Shown here: positions 14,974 to 63,200 of the stretch, piece by piece | Position numbering within the stretch: the first letter of the stretch is position 1 | Layout: each line of letters opens with the position of its first letter | Assembly (NCBI GenBank): GCA_963837815.1 | Contig: CAWIOS010000012.1 | Span: 783,005-847,004, forward strand | Source of the DNA: Ignavibacteriota bacterium | Lineage (GTDB): Bacteria; Bacteroidota; Ignavibacteria; UBA10030; UBA6906 | Length of the DNA: 64,000 nt | Direction: 5' to 3' | The notes under the pieces: model-generated | Database searches by the model: none | What the model was told of the DNA's origin: nothing | What the model saw: the letters and a program-made list of their open reading frames with translations, nothing else | Translations under genes and position numbers: made by a program

Positions 14974-15006
14974 AAGGCCCGGCATTGCCGAATGCAGGAC
15001 GGATTT

Positions 15007-43967: not shown

Positions 43968-46328
43968 TCAGCTCCGGTCCTCCGTGACTTTCCTGAGCTC
44001 CCTGACCATCTCATAGAATTCGGCAAGCGCCATCTCCCGGAGGAATATCATCCCGCGTGCGGCGCGAAGCCTCGGATGCCCGTTCTTCAGGAAGAAGTCC
44101 GTCCCCAGTATCGTCTTGATCATCCCGTACTGGCCGACCTGGATCTTTTGCGCAAGCTCGGAGAACGGACCGTCGTGCTCATAGCTCGGAAAGGATGCCG
44201 CGCTCTGCGAGCCGAAGCAGTTCATGAATGCCGTGTGGAGCATCGTGATGGAGTTGATCGACACCGGGACAAACAGGTTCGCCTCCGCCGGGCGGTACCT
44301 GTACCAGACGTTCCTGTATCCCCACACCCGCAGCGTGGAATCGCCGCTCTCTTTCTCGTAGAGCTTCAACGCCTCGGCCACGGCCTGGAGGGCTTTGTAA
44401 TGCGTGTCGGGCCCGCTCCCTTCCGGGTCGAATGCGACGGAGACGACGTTCGGCCGGACTTTACTGATCAGCTCGAAGATCGGCACGACGTCCCTGTGGA
44501 CTTCGGGTTCCGGCGAGAATATGTCGCCCGTGTAGAAACCGAGCCTCAGCGGATGGATCGCGTACGATTCGATGCCGAAATACGCCCAGAGGAGCTCCAC
44601 CTCCCATTCGCGCGTCATCCCCTTGAGGAGCTGGACCTGCTGCGGGTCCTTGGCGCCGCTGTACTGCGAGCGGCAGTAGCCGATGAGCTCCTGAACACGG
44701 TTGCGCAGCGTGTGGAGGTCATGCGTCTGGTACAGGCCGACGAGATTGCGGAGCAGGCGCCTCGCTTCCGCCTCGTCCTTCATCTCCTGGCTGTTCGCCG
44801 CGGCCCCGTCGAGATAGAGATAGACGTCCTCCATGCGGGAGGCGTTTTCATGCGTGTCGAAGTACCCCTGCACCAGCAGGGCGAAAAGCGTGCCGGTCTC
44901 GAGATGGCTTTCGAGCTTCACGAGGATCGAGAGGAAATACGGGTTCGAGACCGATGTGAAACCGGAGGTCAGGTTGGCGAAATAGTGCTTGTTGCTTGGA
45001 TCGCGGACGAGATGGTAGATGTGCGCGAGGTAGCCGAGCATGATGTCATCGTGATGGGGCTCGGTGTGCAGGAATGTCGTATTCGACACGTGGTCGAGAC
45101 CCTTCTCGATCTTCCCGATGATCCTGTTGCGCGCTTCCGTGGCGAGGTCGACGGGCATCTTCCCGCTCTTGCGCAGCAGCTCGGAGGCAAACCGGTCCCC
45201 CTCGAAATCCTCTTTCGTGAGCTGGACGAGCTGCTTCCCCGATTTCAGGGCGAGCGTCGTCACGACGTCCTCGGAGCGCGCGGGCGTGAGCGTGGTCTCC
45301 CTGCAGAAATCCTCGAACTGCCGCTCCGTAAGGAGGCTCGCGGCACCACGCGTGAGGTAGAACCGGGCATTGGGGAGATCCTGGAGAACGGAGGCGGGAT
45401 ACTGCGGCCCCTTTTCGTTCTCGACGGCGAGCCGGACGATCGCGGCCTTCGCGTCCCCGGCGGCGATAATGATCGCGACGGCCCCGGGGTTGTACGTGAT
45501 CGTCGCAAGCCCGATCGTAATCACAAGCCGCGTCCGGGAAATCTCGATCCCGCCCAGATCCGTGGCGGCGGCCGCCTGCGTCTCGTAGTTGGTGCCCGTC
45601 AGCCGCGTCACCGAATAGACGCTCGACCCCCTCACGTTGAACGCGATGTGTCCGTCCGGCCCGATCCCGCCCAGGAAAAACCCGATACCCCCCATCTCCC
45701 GGACCTTTGTCTCGTATTCCATGCAGAATTCGTCCACCCGGTTGATGACGTCTTTCTGCAGGAGCTCGAGATCCGAGCGGCACTGCCTGACGCGGAGCGA
45801 GAGATCGACGACGCTGCCGGGGAACACCTCGTCCATGGTCTTGCCGGGGGGAAGCCCCAGCGACGTGGCGTTGATGAGCAGGGCCCTGGAGGGGGACATG
45901 CCGAACCCCTTGATGTAGAATTCGTTGACGTACCAGTGGAAGCTGTTATGCTGCGCCGCGTTGATCGGATAGAATTCGTCGATCTGGACGAAGCTGAGCG
46001 ACCTCATGTCCGGCGGCTTCGACCCGTCGATCTCCGCGGCCGCGAGGAGAGACTGGATGTCCTTCGTCTCCCACCGTTCCAGGATGCGCGTCACCCACTT
46101 GATGAAATGCTCGGGTGTCTTTCCGGTGGGGAGCGATATCACCCCGCCGGGATTCCTGATGACCCACTCGATAAACCGGAGCGCGGTGAGCTTCCCGAGC
46201 TGCGGGAAATTCGCAACCTCCACGATTCCGATCTTTTCCGTGGGCGCATACATGGGTTTGCGTCCGCTCCGCTGGAGCTCCATTTCTTCGATCCGGGATG
46301 TCCCGTCATACTGCCTGAGGTTTGCCAT
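43968..46328 (-). CDS. Fusion protein: glucosamine-6-phosphate deaminase/isomerase-like (NagB) domain + LmbE/PIG-L-family N-acetylglucosaminyl deacetylase domain
   Basis: ORF 43968..46406; probable start MANLRQYDG at 46328. N-terminal NagB-like region (…VISLPTGKTPE…FVQIDEFYP…GIGPDGHIAFN…); central LmbE motif FLHTEPHHDDIMLGY (AHPDDE-type). Confidence 0.7.
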   Translation of the reverse strand: MANLRQYDGTSRIEEMELQRSGRKPMYAPTEKIGIVEVANFPQLGKLTALRFIEWVIRNPGGVISLPTGKTPEHFIKWVTRILERWETKDIQSLLAAAEIDGSKPPDMRSLSFVQIDEFYPINAAQHNSFHWYVNEFYIKGFGMSPSRALLINATSLGLPPGKTMDEVFPGSVVDLSLRVRQCRSDLELLQKDVINRVDEFCMEYETKVREMGGIGFFLGGIGPDGHIAFNVRGSSVYSVTRLTGTNYETQAAAATDLGGIEISRTRLVITIGLATITYNPGAVAIIIAAGDAKAAIVRLAVENEKGPQYPASVLQDLPNARFYLTRGAASLLTERQFEDFCRETTLTPARSEDVVTTLALKSGKQLVQLTKEDFEGDRFASELLRKSGKMPVDLATEARNRIIGKIEKGLDHVSNTTFLHTEPHHDDIMLGYLAHIYHLVRDPSNKHYFANLTSGFTSVSNPYFLSILVKLESHLETGTLFALLVQGYFDTHENASRMEDVYLYLDGAAANSQEMKDEAEARRLLRNLVGLYQTHDLHTLRNRVQELIGYCRSQYSGAKDPQQVQLLKGMTREWEVELLWAYFGIESYAIHPLRLGFYTGDIFSPEPEVHRDVVPIFELISKVRPNVVSVAFDPEGSGPDTHYKALQAVAEALKLYEKESGDSTLRVWGYRNVWYRYRPAEANLFVPVSINSITMLHTAFMNCFGSQSAASFPSYEHDGPFSELAQKIQVGQYGMIKTILGTDFFLKNGHPRLRAARGMIFLREMALAEFYEMVRELRKVTEDRS

Positions 46329-46341
46329 AGCGTCCGTCGTG

Positions 46342-48096
46342 TCACTCCTTTGTTGTGAGTTTCCATTCGGCCGGAAGCTCCGAAAGCCACCGGGCAAAGA
46401 ATACATTCGGCACCATGTCGTGCTCGACCCCCGCCGGGGTCATGGACCAGCGCGATCCCGCGGCGGCGACGCTCGCGGCGACGTCAGCGTGCTCCTTCGC
46501 AAGGTGGTCCGTGTACGCGGCCCTGATGATCCCCTTCCCTTTCAGGAGCCAGTCGCGGAAGTACTCGTGCTGCCCGTACAGAGCGTCAAAAAGGAACACG
46601 TGCGTTATCAGGCCGGACATGCCTCCGCGGTCAAGAACGAACCCCGCGGGGCGGTAGCCGCCGCTGTGGGCGGTGACGATCACGCGCGCGACCTCCGTTG
46701 ACGGCACGACGTTCTCTTTCTGCATCGTCGCCATGACGTCTTCCACCATCCTGCGGAAGCCCCCTTCGTCCTCCATCTTCCCGCCGAACGAATCCCTGGC
46801 CCTGTACGGCCCCTGGGGGATCACAAGCAGCGCGTTGATATTCTGCGCGATCATTGACTGGGGGAGAAGGTACTGCTCGAGGACTCCCAGGTCGTCGTTC
46901 ATGTGCCCGTGGAAATGCACAATCACGTTCGCCCCGCCTTTGACCGCATGAAACCCGTCGGGGACGAAGACGACGATGCTGCTGTCGGCATAATGAGGGA
47001 AAAACGGGTAGACCGTCCCGTCTCCCCCCGTGTATCCGTCCTGTCTCGCGGGATGGGGGAAGGGAGCGGCCGCCGAGCGGTAGATTCCCCACTTCCCCCC
47101 CTTGAACGCCGTCCAGTCGACGCCGGACGTGCTGACCGGCCCCCTGTCGTACCCCGTCATCCCGGTGAACTGGTTCCAGACGGCCCGGGCAGCGTATGCG
47201 CCGAGAAGCGTGGCCGCATCCGCGCCGTCGTCCAGATGGTCGGGGGACTTATCGACGTAGATCGCGATCGCGAACTTCACCCTGTCGGTAAGAACAAGAG
47301 CGACGTCGGCTTTGGTTTCGGTGATGCTTCCCGTCTTGTGGGCGACCGCAAACGACGTGCATGCCCACTGCGGGAGAAGCCGCGGGACCATGTCGGCATA
47401 GAACTGGTTCTCCAGTATCCCGATCATCGACGCGCAGGAGGCGGAATCACAGAGGGTGCCCCTGAAGAGTTTTTCCATGAGGAGGGCCATGTCTTCCGGG
47501 GTCGTCACGCCGATTCCGTACCGCATCGCTTCCGGCGTCTCCTGTTTTGTCTCGAGCGTGAAGAGACGGTTGAGTATGCGCGTGTTCTTCAGCCCCCGCG
47601 AGGCGATAAAATCGTTCACGTTCGCCAGCCGCGCCTGATGCGTCCCGGCGAGCCGGTCGAGGACGAGATTCGTCGCCGTGTTGTCGCTCATCGTGATCAT
47701 GAGCGTCACGGCGTCATGCAGCGTGATCACCGCGCCGTCATCCAGGAACTGCAGGACGCCCGATCCGGGTTTCCTGTCTCCGGCGCGGAGCGTGATCCGG
47801 GCCCCGGGATCGATCTCCTTCTTTCTGACCATGTCGAAATACGCCGTCATCACGGGGAGCTTGATCGTGCTCGCGGTCGGGAAACAGTCGGTCGCATTGT
47901 ACGAGACTATTTCCCCCGTGGACAGATTCTTCGCCATCACTCCCATATGCCCGCCGAACCGGGCGTTGAGCGCGCGCAGCTCCGCCATGACGTCCGCGCG
48001 GGCGGGGAGATTTCCCGCAAGAGAGAGGAAACAAAGGAGCGCAAGGGTCCGTTTGCCGGCCGCCGCGGGCCAGCAGCGATCATTCACAGATGCCAT
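46342..48096 (-). CDS. Secreted fusion: class A beta-lactamase-fold serine hydrolase (possible DD-carboxypeptidase) + C-terminal alpha/beta-hydrolase (esterase-like) domain
   Basis: 584 aa; signal peptide; N-terminal domain with S-x-x-K (PTASTIKLPV), SDN (MSDNTATN), KTG (HKTGS) motifs; C-terminal domain with oxyanion-type HFHGH and nucleophile elbow GxSxG (TAHSGGY). Confidence 0.7.
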   Translation of the reverse strand: MASVNDRCWPAAAGKRTLALLCFLSLAGNLPARADVMAELRALNARFGGHMGVMAKNLSTGEIVSYNATDCFPTASTIKLPVMTAYFDMVRKKEIDPGARITLRAGDRKPGSGVLQFLDDGAVITLHDAVTLMITMSDNTATNLVLDRLAGTHQARLANVNDFIASRGLKNTRILNRLFTLETKQETPEAMRYGIGVTTPEDMALLMEKLFRGTLCDSASCASMIGILENQFYADMVPRLLPQWACTSFAVAHKTGSITETKADVALVLTDRVKFAIAIYVDKSPDHLDDGADAATLLGAYAARAVWNQFTGMTGYDRGPVSTSGVDWTAFKGGKWGIYRSAAAPFPHPARQDGYTGGDGTVYPFFPHYADSSIVVFVPDGFHAVKGGANVIVHFHGHMNDDLGVLEQYLLPQSMIAQNINALLVIPQGPYRARDSFGGKMEDEGGFRRMVEDVMATMQKENVVPSTEVARVIVTAHSGGYRPAGFVLDRGGMSGLITHVFLFDALYGQHEYFRDWLLKGKGIIRAAYTDHLAKEHADVAASVAAAGSRWSMTPAGVEHDMVPNVFFARWLSELPAEWKLTTKE

Positions 48097-49305: not shown

Positions 49306-49400
49306 CGCCTGCGGCGGGATGCAAAAAGCGCTCCCCGCCTGTGGCGGGATGCAAAAAGCGCTCCCCGCCTGTGGCGGGATGCAAAAAGCGCACATTGATT
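49306..49400. repeat. Tandem array of three 30-bp direct repeats (ggcgggatgcaaaaagcgctccccgcctgt), each an imperfect palindrome/hairpin; third copy degenerate
   Basis: Visible at 49313-49342, 49343-49372, 49373-49395 (plus a partial leader copy from 49306). Each unit has arms ggcggga / tccccgcc around an A5-containing loop. Lies 5 nt downstream of the epimerase stop and about 40 nt upstream of the nagX start on the minus strand. Confidence 0.8.
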
Positions 49401-50539
49401 CATAGTTTGGTGATGCCGAGGCCGGGGCCGTCGGTCAGCGTGACCTTCCCGTCGACGATCGCGGCTCCTTTGAAGAGGTCGTTGCTTATCAGGAGAGCGC
49501 CGTCCAGGTCCGCATAATCCGCCAGCGGTGAAAGCTGCGCCGCGGCGGAGATCGCGCACGAGGTCTCCGTCATGCACCCGATCATCACCTTCATGCCGAG
49601 CGCCCGGGCGGCCGCGATCATCTTGTACGCTTCGTGCATGCCGGTGGATTTCATCAGCTTGATGTTGATGCCGTCGAATACGCCGATCGCGTTCTTGATG
49701 TCCGACATCCGGACGACGCTCTCGTCCCCGATGAGGGGGAGCGGGCTGCGCGACCGGAGCCAGGCGATATCATCCGGTTGCTCTTTCGGCATCGGCTGCT
49801 CCACGAACTCCACCCCCTTCGTCGCGAGCCATTCGATCTCCTTCAGGGCGGCTTCCCTGTCCTTCCATCCCTGGTTCACGTCCACGCGGATCGGCTTGTC
49901 CGTCACCTCCCGTATCGTCTCGATCATCTCCTTGTCATTCGCGAGTCCCATCTTGACTTTGAGGACCCTGTATATTTCCGCCTCCTTCACCTTCTGCCTC
50001 ACCACATCCGGCTTGTCGATCCCGATCGTGAACGTCGTGACGGGGGCTTTCGACGGGTCGAGCCCCCAGATCCTGTACCACGGGCATCCCATCTTCTTCC
50101 CTATCCAGTCGTGGAGCGCGATGTCAACGGCGGCTTTCGCGGCATTGTTCCCGGGCGCGATCGCGTCAACATCGCGGAGTATGTCTTCGAGACGGAACGG
50201 GTCGGCGTATTTTGCCATGTCCACCTTCGAAAGAAACGCTGTCGCGCTCGCGTGGCTCTCGCCGAGATAGGGGGGCATCGAGGCCTCACCGTACCCGACG
50301 ATCCCGTCCTGTTCGACCTCCACCATCATGACGGGGGTCGTGCTGCGCGAATACGTGGCCACCGTGAAGACGTGTTTCAGTTCGAGCGTGTAGGGATAGA
50401 ATCTGAGTTTCATGGGATTCCCCGTTGTTGATCCCGTGACGGCGCTTCGACCGAGCGACAAGAGAGCGCTCCGGCCGAGCGCGAGCGACGCCCCTGCGAG
50501 GGCCGACCGTTTGAGAAATGTCCGTCTGTCAGTGTTCAT
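49400..50539 (-). CDS. L-Ala-D/L-Glu dipeptide epimerase (enolase superfamily, MLE subgroup; YkfB/YcjG-like) with Tat-type signal
   Basis: ORF 49400..50578; start MNTDRRTFLKRSALAGASLALG (twin-Arg) at 50539. Enolase-superfamily KxK motif (LKVKMG), metal ligands (DVNQGW…E…D). Paired with NlpC/P60 endopeptidase gene upstream. Confidence 0.75.
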   Translation of the reverse strand: MNTDRRTFLKRSALAGASLALGRSALLSLGRSAVTGSTTGNPMKLRFYPYTLELKHVFTVATYSRSTTPVMMVEVEQDGIVGYGEASMPPYLGESHASATAFLSKVDMAKYADPFRLEDILRDVDAIAPGNNAAKAAVDIALHDWIGKKMGCPWYRIWGLDPSKAPVTTFTIGIDKPDVVRQKVKEAEIYRVLKVKMGLANDKEMIETIREVTDKPIRVDVNQGWKDREAALKEIEWLATKGVEFVEQPMPKEQPDDIAWLRSRSPLPLIGDESVVRMSDIKNAIGVFDGINIKLMKSTGMHEAYKMIAAARALGMKVMIGCMTETSCAISAAAQLSPLADYADLDGALLISNDLFKGAAIVDGKVTLTDGPGLGITKL

Positions 50540-51770
50540 AGCCGCCGTAGTACGGGAGTGATGCAAGCCGGCGGACACCCGAGGATTCCCGGGCGCCGAT
50601 GATCCTGCGTGCCCTTATGAAATTCACCGAACGGAAATCGCTGTAGTCTGAATCGGCCGGGTCCAGGCTGTTAAAATGGACGTCGGCGGACGAATGGATG
50701 AAACGCTTTCCCCCGAGCGAGATGGCAACGTGCGTTATCCTCTCCGGCTTCTCACCCGAGGCGCGAGCCCCGAAAAACATGAGGTCGCCCGGTTCCAGGT
50801 TCATGTTCCCCCCGGGAACGTCCACGGGGTCCCCCACGGCAGCCTGCTGGTCGGCGTCCCGCGGAAGAAGGACACCGTTGAGAGCATAGACCGTCTTCGT
50901 GAATCCCGAGCAGTCCATCCCCTTCGCGGAGGTCCCCCCCCAGAGGTAGGGGACGCCGAAGAACCGTTTCGCCGTTGCGACGATCCGTTCCGGTGTATCC
51001 TTCGCCCGGGCAAGCCATGTCTCACACGGTTCAGACTGGTCCCTCCCGATGAAACCCGCGCGGCCGTCCGGATATTCCACCTCGTACAACGAGCCGGAGA
51101 TCCCCCGGAAGCCAAGGAGCGAACCCGCCACGACATCGCTCACGGGCTGAGAGGATTTCTCATTCGTGGAGCGGACCCAGGCGAATTCGGCGGTGACGAT
51201 GAGTTTCGGCATCCGCGCCCAGGCGTCGTACCGGTCGTTCGCCATACAGACAATCCTGTCATCGGTCCATCCCAGGTATTCATCCGGCGTCTGGACGAGA
51301 TACCATCCGTCGTTCTTTTTCAGAATCTTCACAGGCGTGCCAAGCAGAGCCTGGGATGCCAGTTCGGCCGGGTGCATCGGTTTGCTCCGGAGGTTGGCAA
51401 CGCTCACGTTGATGACGCCGAGTGTCTTTTCCCCCACAGACGGTCCGGGGAGGGAAATGATGCTATCGATGATTGCATAGCCCCCTTTCCCGCGGAGGAA
51501 CCCGAGGAGCCGTTCGTGCATCTGCGCGTCCTGTATTTCGCCCGTCAGTGTCAGCGTCATGCCGGACACCGTTCCATGCACGTCAAACACCGCCGTGCGG
51601 TGGTCGGGGGCGAGGTTCTCCCGTGCTTCATTCAGGAGTGCGTTTGCCATCGGGGAGTCCGTTGTCCGTGTGCACGCCGCGACGAGAGACACACATGCCG
51701 CAGCCAGGAGGATCCGCCATTGGGTCCGCGGATGCGGAATGATGACGACCGATGTGCGCGCGCGGGTCAC
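50529..51770 (-). CDS. NlpC/P60-family gamma-D-glutamyl-(L)-diamino-acid endopeptidase with SH3b domains (YkfC-like)
   Basis: 413 aa; lipoprotein-like N-terminus (…LLAAACVSLVAAC); NlpC/P60 catalytic motif FGVPYLWGGTSAKGMDCSGF plus His (ITHVAISLG). Confidence 0.8.
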   Translation of the reverse strand: MTRARTSVVIIPHPRTQWRILLAAACVSLVAACTRTTDSPMANALLNEARENLAPDHRTAVFDVHGTVSGMTLTLTGEIQDAQMHERLLGFLRGKGGYAIIDSIISLPGPSVGEKTLGVINVSVANLRSKPMHPAELASQALLGTPVKILKKNDGWYLVQTPDEYLGWTDDRIVCMANDRYDAWARMPKLIVTAEFAWVRSTNEKSSQPVSDVVAGSLLGFRGISGSLYEVEYPDGRAGFIGRDQSEPCETWLARAKDTPERIVATAKRFFGVPYLWGGTSAKGMDCSGFTKTVYALNGVLLPRDADQQAAVGDPVDVPGGNMNLEPGDLMFFGARASGEKPERITHVAISLGGKRFIHSSADVHFNSLDPADSDYSDFRSVNFIRARRIIGARESSGVRRLASLPYYGGYEH

Positions 51771-54149
51771 TTATTTGATGAGGAGCATTTTTTTCGTCAT
51801 TGTAAACGCGGCGGCGGTCATTCGCACGATGTACATGCCGCTCGCCCGGTTTGACCCGTTCCACGGGACGGCGTACCTCCCGGGGGCCTGCACACCGTCG
51901 ACAAGCCGCTCCACCTCCTGGCCGAGCATGTCGTACACGATTATCGTCACCCTGCCCGACACAGGGAGCTGATAGCCGATCGTTGTCGAGGGGTTGAACG
52001 GGTTCGGATAATTCTGATCCAGCCCGAACGTCGACGGGACTCCGGGCGGGGTTTCCACGCCCGTGACCTGCACGGTGCGGAACTTGTACACCGGAGACCA
52101 TGCGCTCGTCCCGATAGAGTTGGTCGCCCGGACCCTCCAGAAATAGATCGTGAAATACTCGAGCGGGGGAGCACCCAGCGCCGTGTCGGCGACGCCGGCC
52201 GAGTCCATGACGGGAGAGGCGAAATCCGCGCTCTTTCCGATCTGCAGACGGTACGATACGGGGCCGGTCGAGAGGGCCGGACTCCACCGGAGCGACAGGA
52301 ACACAGGGAGGTCGGGCTGCATGTTCGCCGGATACAAGAGAGACGGCGTCGCCGGGAAACCTGTCCGGAAATTCGACGCCGCGGACCAGGAGCTTGTCCC
52401 CCCGCCACTTGAAGCCCGCACACGCCAGTAATACAATGCCTGCCCCTGGAACCCCTTTACGAGCCGGAACGTGTCCGTAAGGGCCGACTCATTCCAGACC
52501 AGGCCCGACGCAAACGCCGGGTCCGTCCCGACCTGAAGCTGGTAGCCCGATGCAAGGAGCGATGAACGCCATGTGACGCTCAGGCTTTCGGCCACGTCGG
52601 ACGTGCCGCTCAGGGGCGCAGAGAGAAGCGGAGCGGGAGGAGCTGAGAGTATTATGATGTTGCTCGTGTCGCTCTCGACATAGTTCCGGCTGAGGGCTGT
52701 GACGAGATAGTACCAGGGTCCACCCGGGGACGGGGGAGCCGGAGGGACGAAATATCTATTTCCTTCGACGGAGAGTATGTTCAGCGGGTTCGCAAGCTCG
52801 GACGCCGCCGGGCGGTGGTCAAAACGATACACGACATACCGGTACGCGGTATCGCCGTTCGGCGAGACAATGGGAAGGTCCCACTGGATCGCGGCGGGAG
52901 CCACGCCGGGAAGCGCCGCGTAACGGATGCCGCGTGGCATATAGGGAGGGGTCATATCCTTCCACGGCATCGGCGCGATGAGCGCCGGGTACGCGTACAC
53001 GCTGTTCCGGAGTGTGTCGGCGATCCCGCCCAGGTTCCCCGAAGTAATATCGTTCGTCGTGAACTGAATGTTCCCCTGCGTGTTCACGTCGGCCCTTGAG
53101 AACCGGATCTGTTGTGCGATCTGGGAGGCGTCACCGAACGAGCTCGTCCCAATCCTGTACGTCGCAAGCCCCGGGTACGAGTGCCGCCCGTGCGCCGCCA
53201 CCGAGTCGGACCACCAGGGCTCGAGTGTCGCGTAGTCCTGCGGCCCGCCGAACTTCCAGTAGAGCTGCTGGGCCAGGTAGTCGACATACTGGCCGTCGAG
53301 CCAGGCCATAGGGTCGCAGTAGATAACGGAGTAGTTGTCGTTTCCGCTCGTGTTCGGGGGCATACCGTCCTTCCAAATACCCGCAGGGCTCATGCCGAAC
53401 TTCACCCAGGGTTTAATCGCCTTTATGCTGTCGTAAATCGCCTGAAGGAGTATATTGACGTTGTCGCGCCGCCAGTCACCCCTGTCGGAAATTCCGCGCC
53501 AGTTGAGGCCGTAGGAGGAATCGTCCTGGTGCGCGGTGATCCCCTCGGCGTAGAAATAGTCGTCCATATGTATCCCGTCAACGTCGTAGCGGCGGGTCAC
53601 ATCGAGTAGGACGCTGGTGACGTACGCCCTGACATCCGGCAGCCCCGGGTCGAGCATCTCGAGGTTTCCGATCGTGAGTATCCACCCGGGATGCCGGACC
53701 GAGACATGCATGGAGCTAATGGGATATGCCCCGATGGAATTGACCGCCCTGTAGGGATTGAACCACGCGTGCAGCTCCATCCCCCTCTTGTGAGCCTCAT
53801 CGACGGCAAACTGGAGCGGGTCGAACGGGGACTGGGGAGGGGTCCCCTGCGACCCGGTCAGCCAGTATGACCAGGGCTCGATCGAGGACTGATAGAAGGC
53901 GTCGCACTCCGGGCGCACCTGAAATATCACCGCATTGAACCCCTCCGCGCGGAGGCTGTTGAGTATCGATACCAGCGAGTCCTTCTGCCTCTGGACCGGA
54001 CCGCCAAGAACCGGGGGCCAGTCGGTGGCCCCCACAGTCGTGAGCCAGACGCCCCGGAACTCATGCTTCGGCAAGACCTGGGAAGTGCAGGTCAGTACCA
54101 CCGACAGGAGGAGTGCGCCGACGGCCAACGGCAGATGAAGAGGTTTCAT
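51771..54149 (-). CDS. T9SS-secreted GHL10 (glycoside-hydrolase-like family 10 / YngK-type TIM barrel) protein with FN3-like repeats and Por-secretion C-terminal domain
   Basis: ORF 51771..54200; start MKPLHLPLAVGALLLSVVLTCTS at 54149. GHL10 N-terminal motif EFRGVWLTTVGATDWP…NAVIFQVRP…HAWFNPYR; middle FN3-like repeats; C-terminal …DQNYPNPFNPSTTIGYQL…VYDMLGQEVERLVDG…GMYIVRMTAAAFTMTKKMLLIK type-A CTD. Confidence 0.7.
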   Translation of the reverse strand: MKPLHLPLAVGALLLSVVLTCTSQVLPKHEFRGVWLTTVGATDWPPVLGGPVQRQKDSLVSILNSLRAEGFNAVIFQVRPECDAFYQSSIEPWSYWLTGSQGTPPQSPFDPLQFAVDEAHKRGMELHAWFNPYRAVNSIGAYPISSMHVSVRHPGWILTIGNLEMLDPGLPDVRAYVTSVLLDVTRRYDVDGIHMDDYFYAEGITAHQDDSSYGLNWRGISDRGDWRRDNVNILLQAIYDSIKAIKPWVKFGMSPAGIWKDGMPPNTSGNDNYSVIYCDPMAWLDGQYVDYLAQQLYWKFGGPQDYATLEPWWSDSVAAHGRHSYPGLATYRIGTSSFGDASQIAQQIRFSRADVNTQGNIQFTTNDITSGNLGGIADTLRNSVYAYPALIAPMPWKDMTPPYMPRGIRYAALPGVAPAAIQWDLPIVSPNGDTAYRYVVYRFDHRPAASELANPLNILSVEGNRYFVPPAPPSPGGPWYYLVTALSRNYVESDTSNIIILSAPPAPLLSAPLSGTSDVAESLSVTWRSSLLASGYQLQVGTDPAFASGLVWNESALTDTFRLVKGFQGQALYYWRVRASSGGGTSSWSAASNFRTGFPATPSLLYPANMQPDLPVFLSLRWSPALSTGPVSYRLQIGKSADFASPVMDSAGVADTALGAPPLEYFTIYFWRVRATNSIGTSAWSPVYKFRTVQVTGVETPPGVPSTFGLDQNYPNPFNPSTTIGYQLPVSGRVTIIVYDMLGQEVERLVDGVQAPGRYAVPWNGSNRASGMYIVRMTAAAFTMTKKMLLIK

Positions 54150-54223
54150 AGGAAATGATGGTTCCGATTGACGCGCGGCGGATTTCAAGGATCCCGGCAC
54201 ACTGGAATCTACTGAATTTCCCG

Positions 54224-54263
54224 AATAAATGAAAAGGCATCCCGCACATTTGCGCGGGATGCC
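54224..54263 (-). terminator. Putative rho-independent terminator (10-bp GC stem ggcatcccgc/gcgggatgcc, 8-nt loop, followed on minus strand by TTTTCATTTATT)
   Basis: Perfect inverted repeat at 54236-54263; on the transcribed (minus) strand it is followed by a T-rich tract; located 43 nt downstream of the stop of gene 54306..55769. Confidence 0.55.
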
Positions 54264-54305
54264 CTCTCAATCCTCAACCCCCGGTCAGCAAGGGGGGGCG
54301 AATAG

Positions 54306-58158: not shown

Positions 58159-60264
58159 TTAGCGAATGACGGCAAGTTTCTTTATCGCCCGCTCGCCGGT
58201 CTTCATGTTCTCAAACACCACGATATAGACGCCGCTCACAACGACCTGCCCTGACGAGGTGTTGGAATTCCAGTACTCGTCGCCGCTCCCGTTTGTGTGG
58301 AGGATCTCCTTGATCAGCTCTCCCACCTCGGTGTAGATCCGGATCCTGCACTGCCCCGGAATGTTGAAAAACGCGATCCTGTCACCAACCGTCGCCCCGA
58401 ACCGGAGGGTCGCAATGTCGGAAGCGATGCTGAAGGGATTCGGAACAATGCGGATGCTTGAAAGCGGAGTCTCCACGGACGCCCTGAGGAGATTCACCTT
58501 GTCATACGTCTGCGCCATAAGCCTGTTGCTCGTGAGGAGGGCTCCGGCGGGGGTCGAACCGGTGGGGTCGCTTGTGACAGCGGAGCCAACGCTCAACAGG
58601 TAGTAATAGTAATCGAACCCCCTGGAGAGTGCCGTGTCTTTGTAGCTCCTTTCCGCGGCACCCACGGTTGCGACGAGTGAATATGTGCCGTCAGAGCGGT
58701 CACGCGCACGGTAGATCTGGAATCCTTTCAGCAGCGGATCTCCGGGGTAGACGTCCCAGCTCAGGTTCACCCCGTCCCCGGCGGACTGGGCGGTGAACGT
58801 CTTCGGGGGAAGGGGGGGCTGCGGAATATTATATCCGGAGTTGTAGTTCGCGAGCGCCCTCCGGAATGTCTGGAAAAGCGAGTCTCTCCCGGTAAGGACG
58901 GAGTCATTTTTGGCCTTCGTTCCAGCGGCAACCGTCGCGGGCACACCTGAAGACACAGCCGCCTTGAACGCGTGCCCGACAGAGAGGCATGCCGTGCGGC
59001 TGAGACCGGAGGCACCCTCGGCGCAGACGATATGGATGCTCTGCCCCGGTCCGAGCGTGTACGGGCCGTACCCGTCGGCGTTTGTGAATCCGCCGGTCGT
59101 ACCGAGCGACGGGTCACCGGTGGGCACGTCGAAGGCCCCGTCAGGCTGCACTTTGTCCGCGTGACGCGGCGACGCGTGGCCCGATGACATCACGGCGTAC
59201 TCTGCCGCCATATACGGGACATTGAACTGGCTGTTATTCGACGTCGGAGGATTCAGCTTTTCGTCGGAGCCGAAATATGTCGTCGTCGAAGGCTGTGACG
59301 GATCGTCCGTGGTGTCGGTCGCCGATTTGTCGGCGTGAAGCGTCTCGGTCCCGATGAACTGGGCGGCCGCCAGGCGTCCGACCGTATCGGCGGGATCATC
59401 TGCGGGAAGGGCGGGGGTGAACATCGGCGCCCCGATATTGCTGTACGCGGTAAATGTGGGAAACAATCCCTGCCAGGTGTAGCGGCAGCGGAATTGCTGT
59501 CCCGCGGGGTCGGGCTTCACGCCGTCTCCCCGCGCATCATTCATCGAGTTAATCCCCCACGACGTCGGATTGCCGATTTCCTGGCTCCCGTCGTACGTGC
59601 AGGCATACCGTGACTGTATGAATATGCGGAGGCCGTTGAGCGTCTGGCCTGCAAGCGGAGCGGCGGTCGTACCGTCGATCTGACCGGTATTCGTGAACGT
59701 GTATTCGTAAATAAAGTAGTTGTCGTTGTACGTCTGGCACCAGGCGAGGATTTTCCGCGTCATTGTGACGCCGATGGCGGTATTGTCCGTGTTGATTATC
59801 ATCCGGTCGCATTTCAATGTCGGATCGGTTGTCGAGCTCGAAAGCGGCGCTCCTCCTACCGAAACGACACCGTCTGCATACACGGTGGGGGGATCAAACC
59901 GGTTTATCGTCTTGAACGTGACAGGGAAGAACTCGCCGAGACCGTTGACGCGCGGTCCGACGTGGACCACCTTCTGCAGCCACGTCGTTCCGGTCTGGTC
60001 CGTCCAGTTCGTCACGCCGATCCAGAGGCCCGACGCCGCTTCCATGTCCTGGTATTTGTAGTACGCGGGCCACTGGAGGCCGTCCTGCTGCACGGAGACC
60101 CGTCCTTCCTCGATCTCATGACCCGTAGAGGCAAACCAGTGGTTCAGCGAACCGACCGCCATCCACCGTATCTCAACCTGCGCCCGCGCGGGCACGGCCA
60201 ATGCAAGAAGGGCCGCAAGGGAGAAGGCGACCCCGGAATGTGCATACTGACGATGACGCATCAT
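58159..60264 (-). CDS. T9SS-secreted protein of unknown function (cell-surface, adjacent to TonB-dependent receptor)
   Basis: ORF 58159..60480; start MMRHRQYAHSGVAFSLAALLALAVPARAQ at 60264 (GAGGAAA RBS). C-terminal about 95 aa (…IVPNPFSIASDIATLRF…GVYIVVFENMKTGERAIKKLAVIR) resembles a variant T9SS CTD. Confidence 0.6.
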   Translation of the reverse strand: MMRHRQYAHSGVAFSLAALLALAVPARAQVEIRWMAVGSLNHWFASTGHEIEEGRVSVQQDGLQWPAYYKYQDMEAASGLWIGVTNWTDQTGTTWLQKVVHVGPRVNGLGEFFPVTFKTINRFDPPTVYADGVVSVGGAPLSSSTTDPTLKCDRMIINTDNTAIGVTMTRKILAWCQTYNDNYFIYEYTFTNTGQIDGTTAAPLAGQTLNGLRIFIQSRYACTYDGSQEIGNPTSWGINSMNDARGDGVKPDPAGQQFRCRYTWQGLFPTFTAYSNIGAPMFTPALPADDPADTVGRLAAAQFIGTETLHADKSATDTTDDPSQPSTTTYFGSDEKLNPPTSNNSQFNVPYMAAEYAVMSSGHASPRHADKVQPDGAFDVPTGDPSLGTTGGFTNADGYGPYTLGPGQSIHIVCAEGASGLSRTACLSVGHAFKAAVSSGVPATVAAGTKAKNDSVLTGRDSLFQTFRRALANYNSGYNIPQPPLPPKTFTAQSAGDGVNLSWDVYPGDPLLKGFQIYRARDRSDGTYSLVATVGAAERSYKDTALSRGFDYYYYLLSVGSAVTSDPTGSTPAGALLTSNRLMAQTYDKVNLLRASVETPLSSIRIVPNPFSIASDIATLRFGATVGDRIAFFNIPGQCRIRIYTEVGELIKEILHTNGSGDEYWNSNTSSGQVVVSGVYIVVFENMKTGERAIKKLAVIR

Positions 60265-60295
60265 GAGTTTCCTCGTTAAGGGTTGAAACAGGCTC

Positions 60296-63200
60296 TCATA
60301 TGTCATAGGACAATCGCAGGCCGAAGAAATACTGTGCCGGGTTGAGGAACGTGAACGTGGTCTGGTTCGGCATGACGATATATGCCTTGTTGTCCAGAAC
60401 ATACTGTTTGTGCGAGGGGCTCGGGTCGTTCGGATCATACGGCTCATACGGCACCGTGCGGTAATCGCCCGGGCGGTCATTCCCCGGTATGTTGACGTAC
60501 CCGAGCTGCGTATTGTATGATGCCGGGAACGCCGGGAGATGGAGCGACTTTATGTACGCGTCGAAGTCGGTCCCCAGAACGAACCCGTCCTGCGACATGT
60601 ATTTCAGGTTGAGGACATTGTACATGTCCATATAGAGCTCGATGTTCAGCTTGGCGATCTTGATATTCTTGCTTATCCGAAGGTCGAGATCGTAATAATC
60701 GCGCCACTGGAGATTGTTCTGGACGCCGGGGATCGAAGAACCGCCGCCCCCCGCCCAGGTGAAGTAAAACCCGGACTGCCAGTTGCCGATGAGATCAAGA
60801 CGCCAGTCCCCGAGAAGGCTCACCGGACCGAGCGCGGGCCCGAGGCTCGGGGGGGTAAAGAAATAAATATTCGCACGCGCATAGGGCTGGGGAATCGGCT
60901 GGTTTATCACGGGGTTTGCCTGCTCAAATGCGGCCTGCTCGCTCGCGTTCTGATAATATGTCGAATATCCAAAGTGTCCGTTTGTGCGGACGTCGTACGT
61001 ATAGTTGATGAACCCCTGGATCCAGCTCCCCTGCTTTTTGTCCACGGTCACTTCAAAACCGCGTATATCGCGATACAGGTTCGGGGTCGTCGTGCTGTAG
61101 TTGATTGTCCCGTCGTTGGAGACGTAGGTCACCGGGTACGGCTCGTCCGTCACGTCCTTGTAATACGCGGCGACCCGGACCAGCAGCATGTCGAAGAGAT
61201 TCTGTTCGTACCCGAGCTCGTACGCAATTGTCTTCGGCGCGGCCATATTCGGGTCAGACATGCGAAGAAGCGCGTGCGTGAAGAGGTCGAAGCGGGCCAG
61301 GAACAGGTTGTCCGGCGTCGGCAGGGACCGCATGTGGCCGTAGTTGAAATAGAGTTTCGAGTCCTCACTGATCGGGAATGCGATACCCAGGCGGGGGCTG
61401 ATATCGACCTGTCTCTTGGTGCGGACCTGTGCGATGAGAGTGTCAATCCCCCCCGAATAGGCCCCGGAGAACGCGGAATTGTACGGGTCAGTGTAGTTGT
61501 ACCAGGAGCCGCTCGGGTCAAGGTAGTCGAGGCGCACGCCGAGGTTCGCGATCATACCCTCGAACTCGAGCTTGTCCTGCAGGTAGGCTGCACCGCGTTT
61601 CGGGAATGTGTGAAACTTCGACCAGTAGCGCCCACCCGCCGGAAGGAATGCATCAACGGACGCGTAGTCGATGTTGTCGTCGGTCAACACCCACTCGGCG
61701 CCCGCCTTGAACTGATTGAAGTGGTCGATCTGGCTTGTGATGTCGAATTTCGCCGTGTACGTCGTCACCTTGCTTGAATCGCGCGAGTCGCTCATCCCGA
61801 CGCCCATGCGGAGTCCGGTGATGCCCGTGCTCGGCGCCGGCTCGTATCCGAAAGGAGCCATGTCGACGAGATACCCGTTCCCGAACGACATGATCGGTGT
61901 AGTGTTGCGGAGCGCGGCAGGGTTCGTGCTGTACTTCGACTGGAACACGAAGAAGCTCGCGTCGTAAAACGTCTCCCCGCCCAGCACATGCGTCACCTTC
62001 GCGCCGCCGGATTTGTAGTCGATCGTCGTCGGCGCCCAGTAATCGGTCGAAAAAATCCGGGAGTCGATATAGCTCAGCCCGTTGGACATGGAGCTTGCGA
62101 TTTCGTCCGGATTTCCCGTAAACACACCGTTGTTCGACGCATCGCTCGTCGTCGTCGCCGCATTGCCGGTTCCGGCGTTGTTGTTGTTTGTCCCCGTCGT
62201 GCGCCCTGCCAGTCCTTCCACGAGAAGCTTGAGCGTGGGTGTGATGTCCGACGTGACACGGGCCTGGCCGTTGTAGTTCCGGTACGCGTTGTCCGACAGG
62301 GGGATGATATATGCGCTCTGTGATTGTTTATACGCGGCAAAGAACCGGAGATTTCCGAGCGCTTCCCCGCCGGGAATGGGGCCGCCGATCCCGCCGTCAA
62401 AGTCGTAATCGGGGATGTTGATTTCCGCCTGCTTCCGGTACTCCCAGAGGAAAACCTGCTGGGCCGCAGTCGGCGTGAGGTGATTGGCCGGGTTGGGGTC
62501 TTTCATCGTCGCCTGCGAGACGGCATTCCAGCCCTGGAACTGGGCGTACTGTTGCTGCATGGCCGCATTCCAGGCGCCGTTCTGCGTCCCCGTCCAGCAG
62601 ACTGACGGATCGATGTAGGGACGGATCCAGTACGAGTTCGGGTCGTAGATCGACGGGCCGAAGTGCTTCGGCCGGGGGTTGGCATAGCGGCCGTTGAAGG
62701 AGAAGCTGTAATCGGATTTGCCGCCTTCCTTCGTTATCACGTTAACGAGGCCGGAGCGGAGGTCGCCATATTCAGCGTTGAACCCGCCGGTCTGCACCTG
62801 GACGTCCTGGATGGAGCTGAGCGCGATCCCCGTGTACGGGAGGTTCGTCCGCTCATCGCGCAGCGTGAGTCCGTCCACCATAAAGGCGGTCTGATCGGGG
62901 GTGCTTCCGCGGATGACGGGACCGGTCGGCGTCGCCTGAACACCGGCCTGCAGGCCGATCGCGTTTGTCACATTCGCAACGGGAAGCCGGTCAACCTCTG
63001 CGATCTGCATGTTCGCCGTGCTCGCGGAGATATCCCTCTGAACGACGGGTCTCTGTGCGGTGATGACAATTTCCTGCCCCTGGACCGTCTCTTCGCTCAG
63101 CTTGAAGTTCAGTGTCGTCGTCTGGTCAATTTCGACGCGCACATCGATCTCCGTCACGGTCGTATAGCCGACGAGCGACGCCCTGACACGGTATGACCCC

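Follow-up and report, generated by a model that had tools for sequence, protein, structure and literature searches.

A dipeptide epimerase with a predicted twin-arginine presequence, paired with a YkfC-type peptidase in an Ignavibacteriota genome

Where does a bacterium epimerize the L-Ala-D-Glu that it releases from peptidoglycan, in the cytoplasm or in the periplasm? The question is raised by two adjacent genes in a stretch of 64,000 nucleotides from an Ignavibacteriota bacterium (GenBank assembly GCA_963837815.1, contig CAWIOS010000012.1, positions 783,005 to 847,004), which we refer to as the window. One gene encodes a dipeptide epimerase and the other a YkfC-type gamma-D-Glu-diamino-acid peptidase. 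An initial annotation of the window had noticed a twin-arginine string on the epimerase, the mark of the twin-arginine translocation (Tat) pathway, and had placed the epimerization step in the periplasm. The reading that we favor, with a probability of roughly 75%, is that exported YkfC releases L-Ala-D-Glu in the periplasm, where a Tat-exported epimerase converts it to L-Ala-L-Glu for uptake via a transporter encoded elsewhere.

An overlapping gene pair and its two enzymes

The epimerase gene occupies 49400..50539 on the minus strand (stop codon at 49400-49402) and encodes 379 aa from ATG 50539, and the peptidase gene occupies 50529..51770 on the same strand and encodes 413 aa from GTG 51770. 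Domain and structure matches for both open reading frames (ORFs) bear out the description of this pair as YkfB/YkfC-type. The longest ORF for the epimerase is 49400..50578, with a GTG start. ATG 50539 (MNTDRR..., MNTDRRTFLKRSALAGASLALGRSALLSLGRSAVTGSTTGNPMKLRFYPY...) is the start that agrees with all homologues, and because these all begin 4 to 5 residues ahead of the RR motif, we took it as the start of the protein. The peptidase stop codon and this ATG lie in an 11-nt overlap (ATGAACACTGA), making the two a translationally coupled pair. The arrangement is not due to chance, because the pair is syntenic in every close relative with enough flanking DNA, because YkfC lies directly upstream of the epimerase in 61 of 80 Bacteroidales loci that we mapped by tblastn (Bacteroides, Prevotella, Alistipes, Parabacteroides, Dysgonomonas, Muribaculaceae, and others), and because codons 1 to 22 of the epimerase change at third positions only, as described below.

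The epimerase has the two-domain enolase architecture, with MR_MLE_N (PF02746, E 1.7e-11) and MR_MLE_C (PF13378, E 3.4e-34). Its nearest solved structure is BT1313 of Bacteroides thetaiotaomicron (PDB 3IJI/3IJL/3IJQ), with 64% identity to 3IJI over 338 aa and one gap (E 3e-147), and its remoter matches are other dipeptide epimerases, namely, Escherichia coli YcjG (E 1e-36) and Bacillus subtilis YkfB (phmmer E 1e-33). The residues that we take to be the catalytic lysines of YkfB, K160/K162 of the KxK motif and K268, align with K194, K196, and K294, and the presumed metal-ligand carboxylates D191, E219, and D244 align with D220, E247, and D272. Near the end of the barrel, D344-L-D346 aligns with the D-x-D pair D321/D323 of YkfB, which presumably binds the free amino group of the dipeptide. 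Two further comparisons were set aside: YkfB Arg24 aligns with Tyr63 where the start of the match aligns poorly and was not used, and a set of YcjG residue numbers fell on nonconserved positions and was dropped. Judged by these alignments, the protein is a Mg-dependent enzyme of the enolase superfamily and an orthologue of BT1313. Its activity on L-Ala-D-Glu is predicted from its relationship to BT1313 (64% identity), an enzyme cited as a characterized YkfB-like epimerase by Xu et al. 2015 (PMC4600125), and it is from this citation that we take the measured specificity of BT1313.

The peptidase matches the Pfam families SH3_16/SH3_3 and NLPC_P60 and has the SH3b1-SH3b2-NlpC/P60 architecture of YkfC-type amidases. 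Residues 112 to 406 align with nearly the whole chain of Bacteroides ovatus YkfC (BoYkfC, 3NPF; positions 8 to 303 of 306, E 2e-82) and with B. thetaiotaomicron YkfC (BtYkfC, 3PVQ/4R0K; E 6e-79). In the alignment, C287 and Y275 correspond to BoYkfC Cys203 and Tyr191, both named in PMC4600125, and H347 and H359 correspond to His263 and His275, histidines that we picked from the alignment as members of the triad. Y165 of the SH3b1 domain and D305 of the catalytic domain correspond to Tyr80 and Asp221, the pair that in BoYkfC binds the free N-terminal L-Ala and shuts out muropeptides. At the N terminus we read a signal peptide with a lipobox (…SLVAA-C33; 51672..51770, minus strand). Two relatives have an LAGC lipobox whose cysteine lines up with Cys33, while the peptidase of a third relative has a signal of the signal-peptidase-I type instead. 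Its predicted features mark the window peptidase as a YkfC-type lipoprotein. Ahead of residue 112, where the PDB alignments begin, lies an extra N-terminal domain of ~70 aa (residues 41 to 111; 51438..51650, minus strand) that is conserved in three relatives and missing from the Bacteroides YkfC structures, and for which a Pfam search returned no family.

The presequence of the epimerase

Residues 1 to 22 of the epimerase (MNTDRRTFLKRSALAGASLALG; 50474..50539, minus strand) form the n- and h-regions of a Tat-type presequence, with the twin-arginine core D-R-R-T-F-L-K, the counterpart of the Tat consensus S/T-R-R-x-F-L-K, at residues 4 to 10 (50510..50530, minus strand). The string singled out by the initial annotation (RRTFLKRSALAGASLALG) is present, and the model TIGR01409 (TAT_signal_seq) recognizes the presequence at 19.4 bits, above its cutoff of 16.7. 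Among the ORFs of at least 150 codons in the window, the pattern RRxF[LIVM]x was found only in this string. The 120 best homologues include 117 full-length sequences, of which 99 carry RRxFLK in this position; their h-regions and linkers vary. Of 123 members of the epimerase family, 74 reach TIGR01409 individually. When the close homologues and the Bacteroidales are counted together, the RR motif is kept in more than 170 orthologues. The h-region is followed by a fast-evolving linker and c-region (residues 23 to 42; 50414..50473, minus strand) that varies in both length and sequence among homologues, and then by Met43 (50411..50413, minus strand), with which the catalytic fold begins; the 3IJI chain starts at the equivalent residue, as do the proteins of a signal-less clade described below. 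As 3IJI is without the presequence at 64% identity, the presequence is not part of the crystallized fold.

We compared the codons of the presequence with those of two relatives at 87 to 89% identity. In codons 1 to 22 there were 9 and 10 differing sites, all 19 of them third positions, and the changed codons were synonymous in 8/9 and 10/10 cases (18/19 in total). In the linker codons 23 to 42, we counted 4 synonymous and 4 nonsynonymous changes relative to the first sequence and 6 and 8 relative to the second; for the mature domain, the counts were 83 and 36 and 89 and 41, respectively. The restriction of changes to third positions in codons 1 to 22 implies that the presequence is translated in this frame and is constrained more tightly than the enzyme itself. 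This codon pattern indicates that the presequence is under strong purifying selection in the epimerase frame, and, as far as sequence can tell, the Tat-type presequence is real.

The Bacteroidales orthologues point the same way. An in-frame upstream RRxFLK is encoded in ~76 of the 80 loci, RKEFLK in 3, and neither in 1. The residue aligned with Met43 is Met in 66 orthologues, Leu in 13, and Ile in 1, so the 14 proteins with Leu or Ile most likely start upstream. The initial annotation had named reassignment of the start codon, with loss of the RR motif, as one of two results that would overturn its claim. Such a reassignment cannot remove the motif, which is kept in these 14 orthologues and lies in a presequence under purifying selection. 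In 24 of the 80, a lipobox cysteine follows the h-region, which is sensible only for an exported protein, and these orthologues, with RRxFLK and a lipobox together, look like Tat-type lipoproteins from their predicted N termini. The lipobox loci are L019, L036-L038, L041, L046, L050-L053, L055-L057, L059, L060, L062, L063, L068, L070, L071, L075, L078, and L081; 15 of the 24 lipobox-bearing orthologues are without an adjacent YkfC gene.

These data also bear on BT1313 itself. The 3IJI chain begins at the residue aligned with Met43. The representative of its 90%-identity cluster has 383 aa, and RefSeq members of 381 to 383 aa start with MQNRRDFLKT (MQNRRDFLKTAALAALGSGLVV...), for example, WP_055279695.1 of Bacteroides finegoldii. 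Genomic orthologues that are 94 to 95% identical to BT1313 likewise encode MQNRRDFLKT... upstream in frame. The 80 loci do not include the B. thetaiotaomicron genome, and we infer the native N terminus of BT1313 from the presequences of this cluster and of these orthologues. The initial annotation had called a periplasmic epimerase unusual because the characterized homologues are cytoplasmic. That holds for the YkfB enzymes of B. subtilis and Bacillus cereus, which have no signal peptide, but not for BT1313, the nearest characterized enzyme, given the MQNRRDFLKT start in its cluster and its closest orthologues. Moreover, the periplasmic order of steps was proposed by Xu et al. 2015 (PMC4600125), in which a periplasmic tetrapeptide is trimmed, cut by BT1314, epimerized by BT1313, and then imported, and the association of ykfB and ykfC in B. 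thetaiotaomicron had already been noted by Xu et al. 2010. The gene pair and the periplasmic idea are therefore not new, and the arrangement, signal included, is standard across the Bacteroidota.

A group of close homologues without the presequence provides a natural comparison. A clade of eight homologues, with 80 to 82% identity in the catalytic domain, lacks it, for example, P0078 and P0029 (337 aa); such genes lie at 8001-9014 in L085/L086, at 8001-9014 in L087, and at 3581-4594 in L088. The clade starts at the position aligned with Met43, and in the DNA of P0078 and P0029 the region upstream of the gene contains neither an RR motif nor a start codon in frame. Directly upstream of these two genes is an SSF transporter gene, at a gap of ~73 to 87 bp, and no YkfC gene was found within 8 kb. 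Their downstream neighbors are those of the window (NagX, PD40, NagK, GH3/beta-lactamase, and SpoIID). In a neighbor-joining tree, which carries no support values, the clade is nested inside Tat-bearing sequences, and this position suggests that it lost the signal secondarily. The covariation of signal, YkfC, and transporter fits with a role of the presequence in setting the compartment of epimerization.

Compartment, substrate, and competing explanations

In the mechanism that we favor, the lipoprotein peptidase would cut the bond between gamma-D-Glu and the diamino acid in free stem tri- and tetrapeptides with an unblocked N-terminal L-Ala, yielding L-Ala-D-Glu. The epimerase would probably fold in the cytoplasm and then leave through Tat by means of its RRTFLK presequence, and in the periplasm it would interconvert L-Ala-D-Glu (or L-Xaa-D-Glu) and L-Ala-L-Glu. 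An ordinary peptide transporter could then import the all-L dipeptide for hydrolysis by ordinary peptidases, and this uptake would draw the reversible epimerization forward. Gene structure, homology, the conservation of catalytic and specificity residues, and the conservation of the presequence under selection are observed directly, while Tat export itself, what the enzymes act on, which way the flux runs, and how the dipeptide is taken up are predictions drawn from them.

Several observations weigh against this reading. On the side of the signal, the Pfam model TAT_signal (PF10518) reaches only 17.5 bits on the epimerase, under its gathering score of 22.7; the uncharged stretch of the h-region is short, at 11 residues (SALAGASLALG) before Arg23; and no clear AxA cleavage site was found in the presequence, where several positions are compatible with the -3/-1 rule and none is decisive. 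In the open-access literature, we found no paper in which a twin-arginine signal is linked to an epimerase of dipeptides or of Glu, and the Tat export route of such epimerases is apparently not discussed there. On the side of the enzyme, the NCBIfam equivalogs for L-Ala-D/L-Glu epimerase, NF011708 and NF041118, score below their cutoffs (149 versus 343 bits and 131 versus 500 bits), and the top NCBIfam model is the N-acetyl-D-Glu racemase DgcA (211 bits, cutoff 400). The two equivalogs represent the E. coli and Thermotoga types, and no model is dedicated to the BT1313 type; our assignment rests on the relationship to BT1313 and not on the NCBIfam models. Finally, no dipeptide transporter was found in the locus among the ORFs scanned, those from position 15000 upward. 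We also observed that DgcA outscores the L-Ala-D/L-Glu epimerase models in all 123 family members scanned.

The alternative that survives best, though we consider it unlikely, is that the enzyme is exported and acts on another substrate, such as an N-acyl-D-Glu (like DgcA), another D-Glu compound, or other dipeptides. DgcA is the best NCBIfam match, and specificities reportedly vary widely within the dipeptide epimerase family. The DgcA score nevertheless falls far under its cutoff, D344 and D346, the counterparts of YkfB D321/D323, are retained, and the gene is coupled to YkfC, the product of which is L-Ala-D-Glu. The 64% identity to an enzyme cited by Xu et al. as a characterized YkfB-like epimerase argues in the same direction.

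It is also conceivable, if quite doubtful, that two isoforms are made, one exported via Tat from ATG 50539 and one cytoplasmic from Met43, so that epimerization takes place in the cytoplasm and the periplasm alike. Almost all sequences in the clade of the window keep Met43 (at least 90% of A2 members), and the signal-less clade starts at exactly this codon, with similar sequence upstream (GGGGGAACCCCATG versus GGGGAATCCCATG); the locus also has an AmpG-like permease that could serve cytoplasmic routes. However, Met43 may persist merely because the fold opens with a hydrophobic residue at this position, which is Leu or Ile in some orthologues, and the motif upstream of it is not a canonical Shine-Dalgarno sequence. 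An extension of this idea, in which two isoforms exist and lineages move epimerization across the inner membrane by gain or loss of the presequence, together with a YkfC or SSF neighbor, is one to which we likewise attach little weight.

That the epimerase is solely cytoplasmic, starting at Met43 (ATG 50413) with the upstream RR stretch untranslated or an artifact of gene calling, appears very improbable. The alignment of Met43 with residue 1 of the 3IJI chain, its use as the true start in the 80 to 82% identical sister clade, and a G-rich GGGGAA located 5 to 10 nt upstream of its codon are all in keeping with such a start, but they must be set against codons 1 to 22 that vary at third positions only and almost always synonymously, the persistence of RR across more than 170 orthologues, the Leu or Ile found at this position in 14 of 80 Bacteroidales orthologues, and the overlap of ATG 50539 with the upstream stop codon, which is the usual coupled arrangement. 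Finally, a Sec export signal or uncleaved membrane anchor in place of a Tat signal, which the short h-region, the subthreshold Pfam Tat model, and the lack of an assignable cleavage site might suggest, is hardly credible, because the RR and the following F-L-K are almost invariant and are not required by Sec signals, 11 uncharged residues are insufficient to cross the membrane, a basic residue (a Sec-avoidance feature) follows the h-region, and the TIGR01409 cutoff is exceeded.

The surrounding locus, known systems, and significance

The periplasmic reading places the pair within a larger locus. Immediately upstream, at 51771..54200 on the minus strand, is a gene for a GHL10 glycoside-hydrolase-like protein (PF02638) with a C-terminal sorting domain (Por_Secre_tail) of the type IX secretion system (T9SS). 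Its stop codon abuts the peptidase start, with the same order in relatives, and the two genes are probably on one transcript. A consensus scan, the only evidence for it, placed a terminator-like hairpin of 18 pairs upstream of GHL10 (54230..54269, minus strand). At the other end, between the epimerase stop and the NagX start, are three 30-bp units in tandem, each with a GC-rich hairpin ahead of a T run and terminator-like in appearance (49306..49391, minus strand). TRF reports a period of 30, 2.9 copies, and 98% matches, and the terminator scan picks up two of the units. Each unit consists of a CCCGCC-ACA-GGCGGG hairpin followed by AGCGCTTTTT, and the units are nearly identical. The motif has no other occurrence in the 64-kb window, and the repeats are not present downstream of the epimerase gene in the relatives L089, L091, and L001. 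Because GHL10 abuts the peptidase, a hairpin lies upstream, and the 30-bp units follow the epimerase, the three genes may form one transcript bracketed by terminator-like elements.

The conserved locus spans ~35 kb, from ~28100 to 63450 on the minus strand, and its gene order recurs in relatives. It contains genes for a TonB-dependent receptor, a PorV/PorQ-family protein, TIG and T9SS-tail proteins, two Amidase_3 proteins, and GHL10; for NagX, a class-A beta-lactamase-like protein, a long NagB-like protein, NagK, a GH3/beta-lactamase fusion, and SpoIID; and for an AmpG-like major facilitator superfamily transporter, a DUF4922 protein, and an Asp/Glu racemase. From this content, it looks like a locus for peptidoglycan foraging, degradation, or recycling. 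The initial annotation had framed the pair with the ykfABCD operon of B. subtilis, and here the comparison does not carry over: no neighbor of the ykfA (LD-carboxypeptidase) or ykfD/dpp type was found among the ORFs scanned (from 15000 upward).

Three neighboring proteins deserve separate mention. The gene at 46342-48096 (minus strand) encodes a 584-aa exported protein with a class-A beta-lactamase-like domain, the nearest structures being 4EWF and Tll2115; its C-terminal ~270 aa contain an AHSGG motif that resembles a nucleophile elbow and matched no Pfam family. It is speculation on our part that this protein is a carboxypeptidase that trims D-Ala ahead of YkfC. The 812-aa protein encoded at 43968-46406 (minus strand) has a partial and weak match to glucosamine-6-phosphate deaminase (NF002557, 191 bits, cutoff 384) and a faint PIG-L hit, and relatives have a protein of 783 to 786 aa in the same position. 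The 773-aa protein encoded at 58159-60480 (minus strand) matches no Pfam family and has only a weak PorZ-like C terminus; its gene is flanked by those for the TonB-dependent receptor and the PorV-like protein and stands where a SusD-like partner would be expected.

Among known systems, the closest is BT1313/BT1314 of B. thetaiotaomicron, where BT1314 is BtYkfC. The order and strand are the same as in the window, with the peptidase directly upstream; the epimerases are 64% identical, the peptidases match at an E value of about 1e-80, both peptidases bear a signal peptide, and epimerases of the BT1313 type, as seen in its 94 to 95% identical orthologues, carry the RRxFLK presequence of the window type. 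BoYkfC is the other characterized Bacteroides YkfC. Unlike the Bacteroides pair, the window has a peptidase with a ~70-aa N-terminal domain and a lipobox, within a T9SS/TonB peptidoglycan locus behind GHL10, and, unlike B. thetaiotaomicron, its host belongs to an uncultured Bacteroidota lineage outside the Bacteroidales with ~61% GC.

The other systems differ chiefly in compartment. The ykfABCD operon of B. subtilis has the same two adjacent families, and the window epimerase retains every catalytic residue of YkfB, but YkfB and YkfC there lack signal peptides and are cytoplasmic, whereas the window pair is predicted to be exported; the neighbors also differ, being GHL10, NagX, the class-A beta-lactamase-like and NagB-like proteins, and the T9SS/TonB genes in the window. 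In B. cereus, YkfC (3H41) is exported, like the window peptidase, so that the peptidase step takes place outside the cytoplasm, yet YkfB has no signal peptide and is cytoplasmic, and import of the dipeptide is believed to precede its epimerization; the window epimerase, in contrast, appears to be exported. The murein tripeptide pathway of E. coli, with MpaA and YcjG, performs the same chemical steps, and YcjG is homologous to the window epimerase, but the pathway is cytoplasmic and MpaA is a zinc amidase unrelated to NlpC/P60. We take both YcjG and the Thermotoga enzyme to be cytoplasmic epimerases.

Taken together, the window pair is an environmental, non-Bacteroidales example of the pathway proposed for gut Bacteroides, and as such the advance is incremental and does not describe a new kind of system. 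What the pair contributes is support, at the level of predicted proteins and their genes, for the part of that proposal in which an L-Ala-D/L-Glu epimerase works outside the cytoplasm, through the conservation of RR, the lipobox variants, the purifying selection on the presequence, and a signal-less clade with different neighbors. If two isoforms were made after all, the step at which the stereochemistry of cell-wall dipeptides is edited would be able to move between compartments, depending on how each organism imports its peptidoglycan fragments. If export of the epimerase is true, a Mg-dependent enzyme of the enolase superfamily would be a Tat substrate, and D-Glu dipeptides would be converted to their all-L form ahead of import, a point of relevance to the scavenging of cell-wall material by bacteria.

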